Source of the DNA: Mobula birostris
Lineage: Eukaryota
Direction: 5' to 3'
NCBI RefSeq assembly: GCF_030028105.1
Contig: NC_092395.1
Coordinates: forward strand, 21,978,424 to 22,042,423
Length of the DNA: 64,000 bases
Positions 4,428-50,300 of this stretch are shown piece by piece. How positions within the stretch are numbered: the first letter of the stretch is position 1; the number at the start of each line of letters is the position of its first letter. Under the pieces are notes generated by a model that was not told the origin of the DNA, did no database searches, and saw nothing but the letters and a program-made list of their open reading frames with translations. Both the position numbers and the translations under genes were made by a program.

Positions 4428-4620
4428 AGAGACTACAGAGGCTGGAATCTGGAGCAACCAACAATCTGCTGAAGGAACTCAGCAGGTGGGGCAGCACCTG
4501 AGGGAGGAAATAAATTGCCGATGGTTTGGGTCGAAATCCTGATGCATAACGTCAGCAATTTCTTTCCTCCCTCAGATCCTGCCCGACCCACAGAGTTGCT
4601 CCAGCAGACTGTTATTCCAT
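4428..4620. mobile_element. Penelope-derived foldback insert (older subfamily)
   Basis: Inverted arms AATCTGCTGAAGGAACTCAGCAGG...CCCACAGAGTTGCTCCAGCAGA. Confidence 0.6.
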
Positions 4621-4644
4621 TTGTGCTTAATTATTTTATGAAGG

Positions 4645-10793: not shown

Positions 10794-12302
10794 ATCAGAA
10801 TCAGAATCAGGTTTATTATCACCGGCATGTGACGTGAAACTTGTTACCTTAGCAGCAGCGGTGCAATGCAATACATAATCTAGCAGAGAGAAATAATGAT
10901 AATAATGATAAATAAACACATAAATCAATTACATATATTGAATAGATTTTTAAAAATGTGCAAAAACAGAAAGACTGTATATTAAAAAAAAGTGAGGTAG
11001 TGTCCAAAGCTTCAATGTCCATTCAGGAATCGGATGGCAGAGGGGGAAAAGCTGTTCCTGAATCGCTGACTGTGTGCCTTCAGGTTTCTGTATCTCCTAC
11101 CTGATGGTAACAGTGAGAAAAGGGCATCCCCTGGGTGCTGGGGATCCTTAATAATGGATGCAAACACGAGGAAATCTGCAGATGCTGGAATTTCAAGCAA
11201 CACACATAAAAATTGCTGGTGAATGCAGCAGGCCAGGCAGCATCAGACACAGCTCCCTAAAGATGTCCTGGGTACTTTGTAGGCTAGTACCCAAGATGGA
11301 GCTGACTAGATTTACACCTTCTGCAGCTTCTTTCCGGCCTGTGCAGTAGCCCCTCCATACCAGACAGTGATGCAGTCTGTCAGAGTGCTTTCCACGGTAC
11401 AACCATAGAAGTTTTTGAGTGTATTTGTTGACATGTCAAATCTCTTCAAACTCCTGATAAAGTATAGCTGCTGTCTTGCTTTCTTTATGACTACATCAAT
11501 ATGTTAGGACCGGGTTAGATCCCCAGAGATCTTGATGCTCAGGAACTTGAAGCCGCTCACTCTCTCCAGTTCTGATCCCTCTCTGAGGATTGGTATGTGC
11601 TCCTTCGTGTTACCCTTCCTGAAGTTTACAATCAGCTCTTTCGTCTTACTAACGTTGAGTGCCAGGTTGTTGCTGCAGCACCACTCTACTGGCTGGCATA
11701 TCTCACTCCTGTACACCCTCTCGTCACCACCTGAGATTCGACCAACAATGACTGTATCGTCAGTAAATTTGTAGATGGTATTTGAGCTATGCCTAGCCAC
11801 ACAGTTATGTGTATACAGAGAGTAGAGCAGTGGGCTAAGCACACACCCCTGAGGTGCGCCAGTGGTGATCGTCAGCGAGGAGGATATGTTATCACCAATC
11901 TGCACAGACTGTGGTCTTCCGGTTAGGAAGTCGAGGATCCAATTGCAGAGGGAGGTACAGAGGCCCAGGTTCTGCAACTTCTCAATCAGGATTGTGGGAA
12001 TGATGGTATTAAATGCTGAGCTATAGTCGATGAACAGCATCCTGACGTAGGTGCTTGTGTTGTGTAGGAGGTCTAAAGCCATGTGGAGAGCCATTAAGAT
12101 TACGTCTGCCATTGACCTATTGTGGCAATAGGCAAGTTGCAATGGGCCCAGGTCCTTGATGAGGCAGAAGTTCAGTCTAGTCATAACCAACCTCTCAAAG
12201 CATTTCATCACTGTCGATGTGAGTGCTACCAGCTGATAGTCATTAAGGCAGCCCACATTATTCTTCTTTGGCACTGGTAGAATTGTTGGCTTTTTGAAGC
12301 AT
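10794..12302 (-). mobile_element. Rex1/Babar-type non-LTR retrotransposon, 5'-truncated, RT region
   Basis: ORF 11504-12415 from CFKK onward: [58 protein letters not shown]; (GATTCT)n tail at about 10794-10810. Confidence 0.85.
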
Positions 12303-12639
12303 GACCCTCGTCCTAGCACTACATCAATGGCCCTGAAGGTCATCGCTCTTCCAATATACAAAAGAGGCCCCTTTTTGATGCTGAAGATTTCTGCCTTTAC
12401 CATCCTTTCAGACAATAAGTTCCAGACCTCATCCAGCCACTCTTCACACTCCCTTTAAGCCTTTTACAAATCACTAAATCTATGCTCTTGGGTTTGATTT
12501 TTTCCCTCTGTCAAAGCCCTCACAAATCTCAATGAAAACCACCCACTGAGTGAAGGAAAATAATCCCAGGCCTTTTTTTCCCCTCATAGTTATTTTTTTT
12601 AGCCTGGAAACAGTACTTCTAGAATAGGAATAGGAAGAA

Positions 12640-21450: not shown

Positions 21451-21769
21451 TCATAGGGCATAAAACAGACTTCACCTGAACTTAGCGCACGTAGTCACAT
21501 CTTGTCAGGCTCAAGTTAGGTAGCGGGCTCTACATTTGCAAGAAATCCTCAGCAGTGCTTGTCCAACCCAGCTATTGTGAGGTTGGAGTAACTCCCTTTA
21601 ATTAAACTTTTGCTCGTTTAGAAGGTAGGTCTGCAAAAATGCTCAAGGGAATTCCCATTTGCCTGGAATTTATGATGTTCTGGTGCCAACCACTGAAGGC
21701 AGATGGAAAAGGAACGAAAGGTTTTGAGGGAAGCTTTAACTGCTCTGATCCTTTCAATTCAACCACATG

Positions 21770-22326
21770 CACTGTGTGGCCACTTTGTTAGCTACCTCTT
21801 GTACCTAACAAAGTAGCCACTGAGTGTATTTTCATGGTCCTCTGCTACTGTCCCATTATCTTCAAGGTTCGACATAGTGTGCATTCAGAGATGCTCTTCC
21901 ATACACCACTGCTGTAATACATGGTTATGTGAGTTACTGCCACCTTCCTGTCAACTTCAAGCTAGTCTGGCCATTTTCCTCTGACCTCTCTCATTAATAA
22001 GGTGCTTTCGCCCACAGAACTGTCGTTCGCTGGATGATTTCTGTTTCCCGCATCATTCTCTATAAATGCTAGAGGTTGTGCATGAAAATCCCAGGAGATC
22101 AGCAGCTTCTGAGATACGCAAACCACCCTGTCAAGCACCAACAATCATTCCAAGGTCAAAGTCACTTAGATCACATTTCTTCCCCATTCTGATGTTTGGT
22201 CTCAATGACAACTGAACCTCTTGACCACGTCTGCATGCTTTTATGCATTGAGTTGCTGCCACATGATTGGCTGATTAAATATTTGCAATAGCAAACAGGC
22301 GTACCTAATAAAGTGGCCACTGAGTG
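21770..22326. mobile_element. Tc1-like non-autonomous element
   Basis: TIR consensus CACTCAGTGGCCACTTTATTAGGTAC at both ends, TA at 22327-22328, plus an extra internal TIR. Confidence 0.8.
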
Positions 22327-25760: not shown

Positions 25761-26431
25761 GTTTGATTTTATTTCACACATTGGGCCAAGCTGCTTTCCC
25801 ACAACGTGTTGGAATGATATTGATACAAAGGAGGAGCAGCCAGTGTCCGACTGTATCATGGTGTAACGGAGATCCAGGGCTCAATGATAGTTTCCCTGCC
25901 TCCACCACAAGTTCTCATTGCATAATATGTCTGGTCCCACTTTTGCAACATCTAGTTCGGGGCATGGCCACTGATCTGACTGGGGTTTTAGGCCAGTGAT
26001 GGGCTCCTTCGCTGTACTTACTGAGGTGGGTGCGTGTTTGTTTCTTGGGGAGAGCACTGTTGGTGATGAATGGATGGGGGGGTAGGTGGAGGGAGAGAGA
26101 TTTCATGCTGACAGGAGAGGAGATTGTCTGGATGATTGGCCATGCTGGGGTTGAGACTGGGGAAATAGCCGGCCACAATGAGAGGGAGGATGTCGAGGAA
26201 GCTGGCATTAATGCTGAACTGGCAGGAAGATGAGAGATGGAAGCTGAAGGGAGTGGAGGTATCAATAGCACTGTGATGGGGAGCCAGAGGGTGGAGATGG
26301 GGGGTGGTGTTGTATGAGGTTGGACTGCTAGATTGGAGGATTTGGAGATGGCCTGACAGCTTAGATGAGTCTTTCACTTACTGGGTGGCTTCCAGGGAAG
26401 TTCTGACATTTTAAAACAAGGTTATGCAGGG

Positions 26432-26671
26432 TGACGAACACAAAATGCTGAAGGAACTCAGCAGGTGAGCAGAATCCATAGAGAGGAATAACCAGACAAA
26501 GTTTCAGGCTGGGACCCTTCATCAGGACTGGCGAATTCCTGATTAAGAGTCTTGGCCTGAAACGTCAACTGTGTATTCCTCTCCAAAGATGCTACTTTAC
26601 CTGCTAAGTTCCTCCAGAATTTTATATGTGCTACTTTGAATTTCCAGCATCTGCAGAACCTCTTGTGGTTC
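26432..26671. mobile_element. Penelope-terminus-derived foldback insert with two inverted hammerhead cores
   Basis: Inverted arms. Minus core CAGTC-CTGATGA-AGGGTCCCAGCCT-GAAA (26493-26530); plus core CTGATTA-AGAGTCTTGGCCT-GAAA-CGTC-AACTG (26535-26571). Degenerate 12-bp TSD at 26420-26431 and 26672-26683. Confidence 0.75.
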
Positions 26672-26928
26672 GGCTATATAGGGACTGCTCAGCTACATAT
26701 TTCCCAGGATGAAGTGATCCAAGTTTCCCCACAAAGCCCAAACGGTGCGTTCAAGGAGTGGAGTCATCACATGCATTCCCAATGCAGAGTTATAACAGAA
26801 TCATGAAGATGACTCACAATAAGAGTGTTTGTCAACTTGAAACATAAAGACGGCTTACTTCAGCTTAAACTGATGTTCAAGTGCATCATAGATCAATGTT
26901 CAAAGTAAATTTAATGTCAAAGAACCTC

Positions 26929-27447
26929 CACTCAGTGGCCACATTATTAGGTACCTCCAGTACCTACTGGATGGATGTTTGTGATCTTCTGCTGCTGTAC
27001 CCATCCACTTCAAAGTTCGACACGTTATGCATTCAGATATGCTCTTCAGCACACACTGTTATAACAGGTGGTTATTTGAGTTTTTTGTTGCTTTTCAGCT
27101 TGAACTAGTCTGGCCAACCTCCTCTGACTTCTCTCATTCATAAGACTTTTTCACCCAGATAAGTACCACTCACTGGAAGTGTTTTTGTTTCTCACACCAT
27201 TCTTTGTAAACTCTAAAGACCGTTGTGCACAAAACTCCCAAGAGATCAGGAATTTCTGAGATATTCAAACCACCCCATCTGGCACCAACAATCATTCCAG
27301 TCAAAGTCATTTGGATCACATTTTTTCCACACTCTGATGTTTGGACTGAACCTCATGCTACCATGAGTTGCTACTACATGATTGGCTGATTAGATATTTG
27401 CATTAATGAGCAGGTGTACACGTGTACCTAATAAAGTGGCCACAATG
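26929..27447. mobile_element. Tc1-like non-autonomous element (same family)
   Basis: CACTCAGTGGCCACATTATTAGGTAC ... GTACCTAATAAAGTGGCCAC; body colinear with 21770-22326. Confidence 0.8.
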
Positions 27448-38150: not shown

Positions 38151-38224
38151 AAGATCTTGCTTTAAAGTAATGCATATTGTCTCCATATCCATATTCTCAA
38201 AAGTTAGATGAACAACTCGTTATG

Positions 38225-38870
38225 CAACACACACAAAATGCTGGAGAAACAAAGCAGGTCAGGCAGCATCTATGGAGATGAATAAACAGGTAATGCTCTG
38301 GAATGAGGCGCTCCTTCAGGACTAGAAAGGAAGGGGAAGGAAGGGGAAGACACGAGAATAAAAAGATGGAGGGAGGGAAAATGAGGAAAGTTAGAAAGTG
38401 ACAGATGATGCCAGATAGGTTGGAAAGGTAAAGGGCTGGAGAGGATAGAATCTGATAGGAGAGAAGAGTGGATTATAGGAGAAGGGGAAGAAGGAGGTGA
38501 TAGGCAGGTGAGAAGGGGTAAGAGGCAAGATTATGGAATAGAAGAAAAGGGAAAGGGAAGAGATTTTTTTTACAATAAGGAGAAATAAATGTTTATGGAA
38601 TCAGGTTGGAGGCTACCAAGACAGAACCTTAAGTGTTGCTCCTCCACCCTGATAGTGGCCTCACCATGCCACAAGAGGTGGCCATGAACCAACATGTTAG
38701 AACATGAGTAGGAATAGGAAATAAAACGATTGGACACTGAGAAATTCCACTTTTAGTGGATGGAGCAGAGGCGCTTGACAAAGTAGTACCCCAAATTAGG
38801 ACAGACTCACCAATGTAGAGAAGGCTGTTTCAGGAGCATCCAATACAATAGATGACGTCAACAGATTCAT
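38225..38870 (-). mobile_element. Penelope-like element 3' part: GIY-YIG endonuclease remnant plus terminal repeat
   Basis: Minus strand 38870-38580 reads ESVDVIYCIGCS*NSLLYIGES ... EEQHLRFCLGSLQPDSINIYF (GIY-YIG, disrupted). It is followed by a pyrimidine tract and the same terminal repeat seen in the foldback inserts. Confidence 0.8.
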
Positions 38871-44034: not shown

Positions 44035-44254
44035 AGAGAAAATCTGCGGATGCCGGAAATCCAAAGCAACATATACAAAATGCTGGAGGAACTCAGCAGG
44101 CCAAGCAGTATCCATGGAAAAGAGTAAATAGTCGATGATTTGAGCTGAGATTCGAGCTGAGAAGAAGGGTCTTGGCCCGAAACGTTGACTGTTTACTCTT
44201 TTCCGTAGATGCTGCCTGGCCTGCCGAGTTCCTCCAGCATTTTGTGTGTGTTGC
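44035..44254. mobile_element. Penelope-derived foldback insert with partial hammerhead
   Basis: ~70-bp inverted arms (about 44066-44137 and 44183-44255); AAGGGTCTTGGCCCGAAACGTTGACTG at 44165-44191; TSD TATGRAAACATG at 44023-44034 and 44255-44266. Confidence 0.75.
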
Positions 44255-44874
44255 TATGGAAACATGTGAAGCGTTCAGCAGAGTAAAAACTGTGTCCTCA
44301 GGGCAGCTCAAATTCTTGCTGCATGACTTGCTGTTTAATTTGCTTCTTCATTTAATTGTAAGTCAGCTATGAAGGTTACAACCCTTTTATACAATTAATG
44401 TTGATCAGTAGGAAAGTTGTGTCGCTGATGATGTAATGACATGCTCAGAACGCGAAAGGGAAATGAGATCTGCATTAGGTTAAATTTTAGCTTAAAATCC
44501 CAATTCAGTTTTTGTGGTGAAAATGGAATATCTGCCATATGTTTCAAAAGATGTACAAGATACTTTTGTACACAGGATATTTACGAATATTTTATTTTCT
44601 AATCTAGTTTCAAGGTTACTAAATTTGCAGGACAAAAATAAGCCATTCTTGGTGGAGTTCTGCTCCACATTTCATCACCTTCCCACCTAATTTTATTTCG
44701 TCTTTACCTCCAATCATCCCTATCCTGATGTTGATGGTGAGAGACTTGGCGATGGTAATTTCATTGATTGTGCTTAGACTGACCCTTAATGGACATGGTC
44801 ATTTTCTGAAGTTTGTGTGTTATGAATGTTGCTTGTCTAACAGATAATAGACTATTGAACCGAGAAAGATCGCA

Positions 44875-46570: not shown

Positions 46571-47364
46571 CACTCGGTGGCTACTTTATTGGGTACACCT
46601 GTACAGCTAATCGTTAATGAAAATATCTAATCAGCTGATCATGTGACAACAACTGAATGTATAAAAGGTCAAGTGTTTCAATTGTTCAGATCAAACATCA
46701 GAATGGGGGAAGAGATGTGATCTAAGTGACTTTAACCATACAATGATGAATGATGTCAGACAGGTAGCTTGAGTACCTCAGAAACTGCTGATCTCCTGGG
46801 ATTTTCATGCACAACAGTCTCTAGAGTTTACAGAGAATGGTGTGAAAAACAAAAAAAGACATCCAGTAACATACATAAAAGTTGCTGGTGAGTGCAGCAG
46901 GCCAGGCAGCATCTATAGGAAGAGGTACAGTTGATGTTTTGGGCTGAGACCCTTCGTCAGGACCAACTGAAAGAAGAGCTAGTAAGAGAATCGACTGTAC
47001 CTCTTCCTAGAGATGCTGCCTGGCCTGCTGTGTTCACCAGCAACTTTTATGTATGTTGCTTGGAATTCCAGCATCTGCAGATTTCCTTGTGTTTGTGTTT
47101 TTACATCCAGTAAGGGCAGTTCTGTGGGTGAAAATGCCTTGTTAATGAGAGAAGTCAGAAGAGAATGGCCAGACTGGTTCAAACTGACAAGAAGGTGACA
47201 GCAACTCTAAATAATCAGTAGTGTGCAGAAGAGCATCTCTGAATGCACAACACCTGAAATATTGAAGTGGATGGGCTACAGCAGCAGAAGACCATGAACA
47301 TGCTGTCCAATCAGTGGGCAGTTTATTAGATACAGGAGGTACCTAATAAAGTGGCCACTGAATG
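46571..47364. mobile_element. Tc1-like non-autonomous element (same family, inverted, interrupted)
   Basis: Both TIRs present; body is the reverse complement of 21770-22326; contains the foldback insert at 46870-47102. Confidence 0.8.
46870..47102. mobile_element. Penelope-derived foldback insert nested in a Tc1-like MITE
   Basis: Perfect 11-bp TSD ACATCCAGTAA (46859-46869 and 47103-47113); inverted arms; minus-strand core CTGACGA-AGGGTCTCAGCCC-AAAA (46928-46964). Confidence 0.8.
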
Positions 47365-50300
47365 TATTTCACATGCTGGTAAATTCCAAATTCTAAATAT
47401 TCTCTGTGTAAAAGTTTCTCTTCTAATACCTTGTTTGATTTATTAGTAACCATTTCTTGTTTGTGGCCCTGAATCATGGAGTCTACAAGTTCAAATGTCT
47501 TTGCTTCTTTGCTCCATATTTTTAAAGGCCTGCTGGGTAACAGGTCAGACTTCTCTTTTCTGGAGAAAAGAGACTGCACGAACTTTTGTGAAGCTTTATT
47601 CTGATACCATCCTTGTAAATCATTGATATCCATTCCCCATTTTTATTGAAAGGTTGATTGTGTCTAGTAATGAAGTATTGCAGAAGCTGGAGAAAATGAA
47701 AACTAAAACTGCTAGAAATAGTCTGCAGGTCAGGCAGCATCTGTGAAGAATGAAATAGAGCTGATGTTTTAAGTTAATAATCTTTTATTAGAGCACCACA
47801 AAGCTGCCTTTTATTCTGTTTGCAACCCCCTAAAACTGTTCTATCTTGCTGCCTTTAAAAAACAAATACCTAAAAACTCTCTTTAAACACCACTTCTTGA
47901 CCAATTTATGGTCACCCTTCCTAATTTTGTTGTCATTGTCATCTCTTGTTTTTCGCTCTTTGAGAAATGCAATTATTGTTGATAATAGAGAGAGGTTAGA
48001 GTGACACAGGAAAGAACGGAGAGAAAAACTAACTGATGAAGTATTTTGGTCTATCACCGTAAAGTAAAAACAGCAGGGAAATAGAAACAATGAAAAAGGC
48101 TTAAGACACTGTAAGAGAGCAAAGCAGAGGGCGAAAGGGAGGGAGGGAGAAGAAGCTAGAGTGTGAGGGGCGAGTGAGCGTGATACCTCTTTCAAATTGC
48201 ACTTGAGTTCCACTGTATATCTGACAAGATCGAAAAGCACCTGATTTTCACTTTAGTTAAACTCAGGCAAAGAAAATCAATCAATTCCCATACGCGCATC
48301 AGGCGAGTATCACAGTTTGAAACTCCATCCGACAGAGACAATGTGCTGAAAGCACAGTGCCTGTCCTGCTGAAGGGTGGAATTTGGAGTGATGCCAGAAA
48401 GTCTTAGTCAAAGAGAAGTGCGTTTGATTTGGAACAGTTGAGGAAATGAAAAAAACACATCTTTTCAGGTAATGTTGATTGCTGTGATGCCAGGAGGGGA
48501 AGGGATGGGAGAGAATTTTTCGGAATGTGTAGCCCATATGGTCCAGAATTAGTCAAAGTGGTTCAAATAGCCATGAGCATAATCTGAATCTTGTTGTAAT
48601 CATAACCTTGTTGCCACATTTTCCTGAAACATCAACTTTTTATTCCTCTCCATCAATGCTGCCTGGCCTTCTGAAGTCCAGGCAAAAGGAGCACAGAAGC
48701 CTAAAGGCACACACTCAGCAATTCAGGAACAGCTTCTTCCCCTCTGCCATCTGATTCCTAAATGGACTTTGAAGCCAAGAACACCACCTCACTTTTATTA
48801 CTTCTGTTTTGCACTATTTAATATCCAGATGTCTACTTAATGTAATTGATTAAGTAATTTTTTCTATATTATCATATATTGCATTGCACTGCTGCCTCTG
48901 AGTTAACAAATTTCATGACATATGTCAGTAATATTAAACCTGATTCTGATTCCTCCAGCATTTTGTGTGTGTTACTCTGGATTTTCCAGCATCTGCAGAT
49001 TCTCCTGTGTTAACACACCTATCCGTGTCTAATGTGAATTGCAGCCAGGGATGCATTGTGATTTCATCTCTGCTTTAGCAAGCTGAGTTATTCTTTGGAG
49101 GACAATTCTCTGCACAATTCTTTTCTGCAGATTTGAAGAGCAAACTGCAAACAAGAGTAACAAAAGGAGCAGAAATTAATTGGTTTTGTCCACTCTATTT
49201 GTGTTAATTGAAAGGTCAATTGATACTTATTTCCAGTACAGTTGTCAAAAGATGGAGGGAAATTGGGATGAAGAGAGACAAAGGGACATTTGGACACAAA
49301 TCTTGAGCCTCCATTTGATGTCAGAGTAAACTATGTATTACCTTATCAATGGTTTGCAGCAATGACATAACATCACTTCAAAAGTTCATTGCAGTGCTTT
49401 ATGGAACAATGCATCATTAGGATGGTTGTCAAGTGCCTCACTAAAACCACTGCTAAAAATCCATGCAAAATTACTTAAGATGATGGGAATTGTGTGTCAC
49501 TCAGGATATATCAAGGCATAGAATGACACAAAATTGGCCAAATTTGCCCAACCTATTCAGGTTGGTGTTTATGCTCCAAGTTACCCACCTCCTACATTGC
49601 TTTTGCTAACCCTGCCACTGTATCTTCCGTTACTTTCTCCGTCCCATTTGACTACCTTGCCCTCGAATGCAATTCTTCTGTTCACCTCACTGTTCCATGT
49701 GGTCCATAAATAAAACACTCTAGATGCCAGAGATTTGAAAGAAAAACAGCAGGAGAGAGAAAAAGAGATAATGTTTTAGATTAATGACCTTTCTTCAGAG
49801 CACCAGTCTGAAACATTAAGTATTTTCCTTACCACAGATGCTGCCTGACTTGCTGAGCACCCCAAATGGTATTTAGTTCTGCATTCTAATAATCTATAAA
49901 TAAATATTCTAGGTTTATGACTATTTGCTATGGACTCTCATACAAGTGAAACATATCCATTGCATGTTAGTACCTCTGTAGTCTGATTTCCATCTTTTCC
50001 CTTTTCTAAAGCAGCCACCTCCCACCAGCCTCTTCAATGAAGACTGTAATAACCTCTGTCTTGGTACATATACATGTATCTTCTCCAGTGCCTTCATGTT
50101 TCTTTGCAATGCACAGTATTCAGATTACGGCCTGTTCCCTTAAATGCTCTGGCCATTTCTCCCACCACCATCCAGTCATGAAATATCCTGCCCAAAATAA
50201 GAATTCTGTAGCAGAGACTTATTGTGAAATTCATTGCATTTGAACACCATCAGCCTCTTGGAACAGGCCTAATTAATTATCAAGTACCTTACCTCAAAAG

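Follow-up and report, generated by a model that had tools for sequence, protein, structure and literature searches.

A palindrome in the Mobula birostris genome is very probably a decayed, inverted insertion of the hammerhead-bearing end of a Penelope-like element

The stretch of DNA analysed here (the window) comprises 64,000 nt of the Mobula birostris genome (NC_092395.1, positions 21,978,424 to 22,042,423 of the forward strand). At 26432-26671 it holds a palindrome of about 240 bp with a hammerhead core on each strand, in agreement with the coordinates and sequence given in a preliminary description of this DNA. Aligned with its reverse complement, the 240-mer shows 73% identity over 183 nt (26442-26623, E 2e-24), and it folds as a single long hairpin of -95.1 kcal/mol (z -8.0), a stability equalled by none of 200 shuffled sequences. 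Both halves match a profile that we built from 16 natural copies of one Penelope-like element (PLE) family: the left arm with E 1.6e-20, ending at +92, and the right arm with E 7.2e-29 from -2 to +128. Each is 82% identical to one natural copy (L141), the left arm over -10 to +88. Family positions are counted throughout from C3 of the CUGANGA core, which is set to 0, and residue names (G8, C15.2:G16.2, C3) follow what we take to be the usual hammerhead numbering. The palindrome and its relatives in the window consist of the following features.

26420..26431, plus strand: candidate target-site duplication, left copy, decayed; the best direct repeat at the element ends
26434..26535, minus strand: left arm, a PLE pLTR end from about -6/-10 to about +92, with a short tail
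26493..26530, minus strand: minimal type I hammerhead with C3 at 26525 (CAGTC CTGATGA A GGGTCCCAGCCT GAAA CTTT GTCTG)
26532..26536, no strand: head-to-head inversion junction at the hammerhead 5′ edge, the 5′ ends of the arms lying 1-5 nt apart
26535..26571, plus strand: minimal type I hammerhead with C3 at 26539 (ATTC CTGATTA A GAGTCTTGGCCT GAAA CGTC AACTG)
26537..26668, plus strand: right arm, a pLTR end from -2 to about +129, with a long tail
26635..26668, plus strand: 'tail' extension of ~35 nt, in the right arm only, placed by the profile match and the anatomy of young copies
26672..26683, plus strand: candidate target-site duplication, right copy, 9/12 identical to the left copy
38223..38686, minus strand: single arm of the same family, extending upstream via a pyrimidine-rich 3′ UTR into a decayed PLE ORF end
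44035..44260, no strand: sister inverted insertion with a long and a short tail, a 15-bp duplication with 2 mismatches and a different junction
46862..47095, no strand: sister inverted insertion of a younger subfamily, with a short and a long tail, an exact 11-bp duplication and one core only

The 12-bp direct repeat around the focal copy sits exactly at the element ends given in the preliminary description; its score lies within the range of mismatched-flank controls, and its position is what speaks for it. Elsewhere in the window, a related PLE subfamily has left a palindrome at 4433-4640 that is more diverged and gives a sub-threshold Rfam match to MIR533; hairpins of this kind may be misannotated as miRNA precursors. 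A short palindromic repeat with CACTCAGTGGCC-like ends, found at 21765-21831, 47303-47369 and 26930-26960 (sub-threshold match to mir-9256), looks like a separate small foldback family. On the minus strand at 11504-12454, a 316-aa open frame with a strong RVT_1 match (E 7e-24) is likely a LINE fragment. An Rfam scan of the window at E<=10 returned no hammerhead family and only sub-threshold matches to miRNA hairpins.

Both focal cores are damaged, as had been stated for each copy. The minus-strand core keeps CUGAUGA, GAAA and UH, but its C15.2:G16.2 pair and one pair of stem I are broken, while the plus-strand core carries G8->U together with three unpairable stem positions and is predicted from its sequence to be inactive. 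The family consensus is intact and abundant, which bears out the earlier identification of a Penelope-type minimal type I hammerhead with a closed stem I and a stem III reduced to ACGT. The 38-nt consensus proposed there has 79 exact matches in the 4.01-Gb genome against 0 for its reversed control, and a genome-wide search with a 35-nt consensus containing two Y positions yielded 28,074 matches. In a random sample of 1.064 Mb (five 200-kb stretches plus the window), a minimal-hammerhead descriptor matched 13 times, always in the focal family and never inside the 64-kb window, with 0 matches in reversed DNA. Young arms that span the motif retain an intact core in 60 of 70 cases, and in 39 of 70 all stems are intact as well. 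Stem differences between subfamilies in this genome are few and one-sided only (C/U at the stem I end, C/U in stem II) and partly reflect CpG decay. The motif of the parent element is, on these sequence features, a credible candidate ribozyme of the PLE minimal hammerhead type.

For the palindromic copies the expectation is different. It had been suggested that such a unit presents a ribozyme whichever strand is transcribed; this is formally true, but each transcript contains a single sense core that is predicted to be sequestered by the foldback. In equilibrium predictions, the two focal strands need 43 and 29 kcal/mol to adopt the hammerhead fold, six young pairs need 15-67 kcal/mol and four single arms 4-7, and the foldback hairpin is accordingly modelled as burying the core. 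The two focal cores lie on opposite strands and therefore could not dimerise in cis. The ribozyme would belong to the RNA of the parent element; in the stub it would be a passenger; it is mutated here and predicted to be trapped in a hairpin.

Long copies of the family reveal this parent. In these, going upstream from the core, a pyrimidine-rich UTR of ~330 nt leads into a reading frame ending in LQPDGMNIDFSNF, a peptide with 125,305 first-look candidates in the genome. The open frame of one near-full-length copy (L191) is 898 aa long and includes YIDD, a CKRNKCYTC linker (CX4CxxC) and a GIY-YIG end. Its Pfam matches to RVT_1 (E 1.6e-4) and GIY-YIG (E 8.5e-4) both fall under the curated cut-offs, and a relative with 53% identity passes the GIY-YIG cut-off. 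The closest named proteins come from rays and sharks: Mobula (86-93%), Hypanus (77-80%) and Chiloscyllium (66-70%). According to passages of PMC8557442, a CX2-5CxxC linker before GIY-YIG marks Neptune and Nematis PLEs, and we classify the parent as a Neptune-type PLE from its CKRNKCYTC motif, the linker being shared with Nematis. Another copy (L195) forms a pLTR-ORF-pLTR unit with 3,476 nt between its two hammerheads, the ORF being broken into several frames, and the inverted layout is also seen with long arms (L191, L194, L196). The family thus combines the characters of an EN+ PLE: an ORF with RT plus a C-terminal GIY-YIG endonuclease that is continuous with the repeat, a partial-tandem pLTR-ORF-pLTR arrangement, a target-site duplication, and an inverted 5′-truncated copy with a one-sided tail. 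In the near-full-length copy, the inverted 5′ arm (L191:4116-4687) stops at about +56, and its missing tail end was probably deleted after insertion. Within the window, the single arm at 38223-38686 matches the profile from -419 to +96 (E 3e-42) and includes a GSLQPDSINI frame fragment. We are nearly certain that the 240-base palindrome is an old, decayed, doubly 5′-truncated head-to-head insertion of the hammerhead-plus-tail end of such a Neptune-type element.

This copy is an ordinary decayed stub, one of roughly half a million PLE-family loci by extrapolation. In the random sample the arm profile found 193 arms at 148 loci, of which 110 hold a single arm, 28 are simple head-to-head pairs and 10 have another layout; it has 0 matches in the reversed control. 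The density of ~139 loci per Mb extrapolates to ~5.6×10^5 loci in the genome, of which ~1.1×10^5, about a fifth, are inverted. Exact genome matches to three tail motifs number 52,707, 4,056 and 9,658, the second being the type of the focal copy. Orientation is strongly skewed, with 28 '-+' against 1 '+-' among the 148 loci, besides 3 '++', 1 '--' and 5 complex. The flanking direct repeat scores above the best mismatched-flank control in 18 of the 28 inverted loci.

Young copies display the anatomy clearly. The young set consists of the first 90 loci on C1 (0.1-5.5 Mb) that belong to the youngest subfamily, less two that were insertions seen twice, which leaves 88. These loci were picked by tail motif and hence without regard to their 5′ ends. 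The number of inverted pairs, which the preliminary description had left to be counted, is 41 of 88 in this young set, beside the 28 of 148 simple inverted loci of the random sample. A strong duplication flanks 37 of the 41, with a length mode of 13-14 bp and a span of 10-17 bp; no clear duplication was found in 27 of the 47 non-inverted young copies, some of which are cut short or complex (for example L300). The two arms of a pair differ in their tails: one long (to about +129) and one short (to about +95) tail occur in 37 of the 37 classifiable young pairs, with 4 unclassifiable. Non-inverted young copies are 26 long to 21 short, so that independent pairing predicts about half long-plus-short pairs (p about 5e-12), and one of these 47, L300, proved to be a complex inverted long-plus-short insertion. 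In older copies the rule is less strict. Older subfamilies (n=17) have 11 long-short, 4 long-long and 2 short-short pairs by profile, or 13, 2 and 2 after inspection by eye; inverted loci of the random sample (n=28) have 23 long-short, 2 short-short and 3 unclassifiable; the loci L351-L365 have long plus short in 13 of 15, with 2 ambiguous; and the focal tails end at +92 and +128.

The arms of one insertion also resemble each other, agreeing at 102 of 125 non-CpG diagnostic sites versus 58% when shuffled (0/2000), a comparison that left out 4 loci that are duplicates or junction-sharing partners. Later arm-to-arm conversion could account for this similarity. One explanation for inverted pairs is that they arose after insertion, from two independent insertions or by later rearrangement. 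The family is dense, at the ~139 loci per Mb given above, and palindromes are prone to repair. However, one duplication flanks both arms in the 37 of 41 young pairs, long-plus-short pairing is strict in the classifiable ones, head-to-head pairs vastly outnumber the opposite orientation, and the arms share alleles. A post-insertion origin is for these reasons extremely unlikely. Tail-less small inversions of UTR or ORF-end pieces were additionally seen at the 5′ junction of single arms (L233, L240, L277, L307).

Five junctions are common to distinct insertions on C1 that lie about 0.09-2.15 Mb apart. Identical inversion junctions, each within an insertion's own duplication, occur in L311 and L316 (157 kb apart), L312 and L323 (390 kb) and L300 and L305 (373 kb), and in the first and third pairs the tails are swapped. 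L351 and L352, 2.15 Mb apart, have 11 of 13 spacer bases in common. L300 (G000:C1:3105864-3110464) has, in addition, the 5′ junction of L301, 93 kb away, together with 69 nt of the LINE-like flank of L301; the presence of that target flank inside L300 fixes the direction of copying as L301 to L300. Among 14 junctions with an arm beyond -40 there are 3 shared pairs, a number that re-pairing of the same ends gave in 38 of 20,000 trials. Genome-wide searches with two of the shared junctions found nothing beyond the local pair with 2 mismatches allowed, and exact searches found each junction once, which points to local copying; for the other pairs, sampling covered that C1 region only, so that sharing was detectable only locally. 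A mobile subfamily as the source of the shared junctions was rejected on the same searches.

The flanks of junction-sharing pairs are not segmental duplicates, and the likeness of the L311 and L316 flanks is that of two diverged copies of another repeat. Rare variants in common amount to 1 per arm for L311/L316 and 0 for L312/L323. The borrowed parts of L300 are 94-97% identical to their donors, no closer than to unrelated copies, and recent gene conversion was rejected for this locus. The scarcity of shared rare variants and the distance of L300 from its donors imply that the copying is about as old as the insertions. The shared junctions would reflect either template switching at the time of integration or the early repair of a break in a fragile palindrome, and not every junction was therefore made from scratch. 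Near-identical copies with shared flanks exist as well, 436 kb apart on C11 (L157/L158) and with a ~33-kb period on C36 (L163-L165, L167), where segmental or tandem duplication is likely.

Recurring junctions with separate duplications at separate loci are what one might expect if the palindrome were a non-autonomous unit that moves whole, as a retrozyme-like RNA or a MITE-like foldback element, with a ribozyme on either strand. Short palindromes are indeed numerous, with 295 exact back-to-back core starts in the genome and both arms within 40 nt of the core in 19 of the 28 inverted loci of the random sample. Against this, the insertions are not uniform: the spacers of back-to-back core starts include, by eye, ~40 distinct ones among 50 listed, none occurring more than 3 times, and arm 5′ ends in inverted young pairs range from +92 to -1545, with arms between about 35 and more than 1,600 nt long. 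At the diagnostic sites of young inverted insertions, neither the long nor the short arms have alleles of their own. The recurring junctions that were searched are found in only 1-2 places, and the tail swap in two junction pairs is impossible by whole-unit copying. Tandem hammerhead repeats such as those of non-LTR retrozymes are missing from the sampled loci, arm ends do not coincide with the site of cleavage, and in fold predictions the hairpin buries the core. The motif is also physically continuous with a Neptune-type PLE ORF, most loci (110 of 148) being single arms and the inverted copies varying in arm length and junction. The retrozyme-like unit of the preliminary description is thereby largely refuted, and we regard whole-unit movement as very unlikely.

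A second alternative accepts the PLE origin and has the mirror arm arise when either the cDNA or, as proposed for rotifer Penelope, an antisense template folds back or primes itself, the tails being set later by endonuclease resolution. Passages of PMC3846280 argue for self-priming from palindromes at the inverted junctions of rotifer Penelope, and the tail is ascribed to EN resolution in part of PMC8557442. In the Mobula family, the alleles shared between arms are compatible with fold-back, as is the overlap of 1-9 nt at 16 of 40 simple junctions, some of which use the stem I pentamer (L145). The other 24 have no overlap or carry inserted bases (5 flush, 19 with insertions), and some inserted bases are copied from nearby element sequence. 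If the cDNA snapped back, the arm extending further 5′ should be the one with the long tail; it is the short-tail arm that reaches further in 17 of 36 pairs (the long-tail arm in 10, with 9 level), and for those 17 snap-back is excluded, because copy-back cannot supply a long tail to the shorter-reaching arm. L300, with two ends extended on two different donors, likewise stands against fold-back. The antisense-template version is compatible with the arm-reach counts and stays under consideration, yet self-priming as a whole seems to us unlikely.

Arm 5′ ends are not spread evenly. Of 128 young ends, 45 fall in -12 to +12 against 5 and 9 in the adjacent 25-nt bins; in finer bins, 31 lie in -7 to +2 and 4 in -17 to -8. 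Older copies show the same pile-up (32/81 and 61/184 arm ends), and among 30 arms selected for reaching -4, 12 end at -4 and 9 at -7. The focal junction falls in this same zone. Hammerhead cleavage was ruled out as the cause of truncation, with only 4 of the 128 ends near the cleavage site (+23 to +32). Since the ends gather at the hammerhead 5′ edge and few lie at the cleavage site, the templates were mostly uncleaved. A second, smaller cluster of arm ends lies at -350 to -320 (11/128), near the ORF end, on a CCTGATG word as at the hammerhead.

There are three candidate sources of the pile-up. The edge could be the 5′ end of the RNA, as the words TCAGT/TTAGT, which we take to be initiator-like, would suggest; it could be a pause of the RT at helix I; or it could be a splice acceptor. 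For the last, L191:7553-7573 (family -27 to -7) contains a branch-point-like TACTAAC, a pyrimidine tract and a CAG ending at the helix I 5′ strand, and the initiator-like words overlap this candidate acceptor. Penelope has an internal promoter (a passage of PMC2377424), and the intron of D. virilis Penelope ends at helix I (a passage of PMC4209133). A spliced template was rejected for the insertions, as no sense-sense jump among the 88 starts at the candidate acceptor (-7/-6). Contigs of four sequencing runs, which may be DNA and so bear neither for nor against expression, listed no splice-type joint there.

Taken together, we consider it probable that the palindromes are truncated inverted PLE insertions, likely double-primed from both nicked strands, with the two cDNA ends joined; double priming is the likely reading of the genomic footprints and of in vitro work on another PLE clade. 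The element protein would bind its own RNA near the pLTR-ORF junction and nick both strands about 13-14 bp apart. Priming would begin at about +129 from one nick and at about +95 from the second, on the same RNA or source locus. Both cDNAs would traverse the hammerhead, still uncleaved, and would often end at its 5′ edge, which is probably the RNA 5′ end or a strong pause, and their ends would be joined via short microhomology, added bases or short template slips.

A bolder extension of this double-priming scheme, possible rather than probable, is that the stubs are failed 'strong-stop' products of two-ended integration and that longer products switch onto neighbours on the same chromosome. 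A dimeric RNP would prime both strands of the target from two fixed sites in the RNA, close to the transcript 5′ end, the cDNAs would run off at the hammerhead 5′ edge, and longer insertions would be completed on genomic DNA or nascent RNA of neighbours 0.1-2 Mb away. L300 would be the showcase, with its own duplication and tails and with its ends continued via the L305 and L301 junctions. If general, this reading would be one way to account for inverted and tandem structures in Penelope elements and for their unexplained intron retention.

In practical terms, loci of this kind should be annotated as PLE and not as MITE, retrozyme or miRNA precursor. Their value is that of a large fossil record of a poorly understood PLE integration mechanism, with predictions that can be counted: strict long-plus-short pairing, a 13-14-bp stagger, an end wall at the hammerhead 5′ edge and local borrowing of junctions. 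Additionally, the ~10^5 long hairpins may supply double-stranded RNA on a large scale.

PLE insertions often have an inverted 5′-truncated copy and a one-sided tail of 30-40 bp, as passages of PMC8557442 and PMC3846280 describe. In the same passages, EN+ Neptune-type PLEs agree with the Mobula family in their RT, Cys linker and C-terminal GIY-YIG, in the pLTR-ORF-pLTR arrangement with a hammerhead in the pLTR, and in the head-to-head inverted copy, the tail at one end and the target duplication. Unlike the EN+ PLEs described there, the Mobula family has arms often cut to about 100-135 nt and ~10^5 palindromes by extrapolation. Its duplications are 13-14 bp long versus 8-10 in the rotifer PLE examples of these passages. 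Long-plus-short pairing, presented there as optional or frequent and left uncounted, is counted here, and those passages contain no description of a pile-up at the hammerhead edge or of long-range junction sharing. Our literature search found no paper counting any of these three features for PLEs; such counts may be in print, for example in older papers on PLE structure.

The minimal hammerheads of metazoan PLEs, in the parts of PMC4209133 considered here, share with ours CUGANGA and GAAA, one unpaired base after the core, a helix I of 4-5 bp, a palindromic remnant for helix III and thousands of dispersed truncated-PLE copies. In Schistosoma, dual minimal hammerheads on opposite strands are about 100-700 bp apart according to these parts, whereas the cores of the Mobula family are spaced by 10-20 nt. 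The host of our family is a cartilaginous fish, a group absent from the hosts listed there.

The closest biochemical parallel to double priming is the purified Anolis Poseidon (PAc) protein, which cuts and extends both strands and uses two start sites bounding the tail on uncleaved RNA, the Anolis Poseidon hammerhead cleaving only with the protein (PMC11167929). In both PAc and the Mobula family, a hammerhead lies ~100 nt upstream of two RT start sites that delimit the tail. They differ in clade (Poseidon versus Neptune-type); for PAc the study saw no strand difference in start site and did not resolve how start sites pair between strands or which inverted products form (PMC11167929).

Animal non-LTR retrozymes resemble the stubs in being small, non-coding, dispersed and PLE-related, with a type I hammerhead, as far as passages of PMC7229834 and bioRxiv 10.64898/2026.07.22.740005 describe them. 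Retrozymes in those passages form head-to-tail tandems with a same-strand hammerhead per unit and release circles, whereas in the Mobula stub two arms are joined head to head, a transcript holds one sense core, and the ends would be set by PLE start sites. No head-to-tail hammerhead arrays occur among the 148 loci (1.064 Mb). MITEs and foldback elements are likewise a poor match, given the variable junctions and arm lengths, the duplications of 10-17 bp and the lack of arm-specific alleles. A further parallel is L1 twin priming, in which the second target strand primes a second cDNA and a 5′ inversion results inside one duplication. In L1 each of the two cDNAs is made from a different part of one RNA, whereas in the Mobula family both would be copied from one and the same stretch, beginning at two fixed sites about 35 nt apart.
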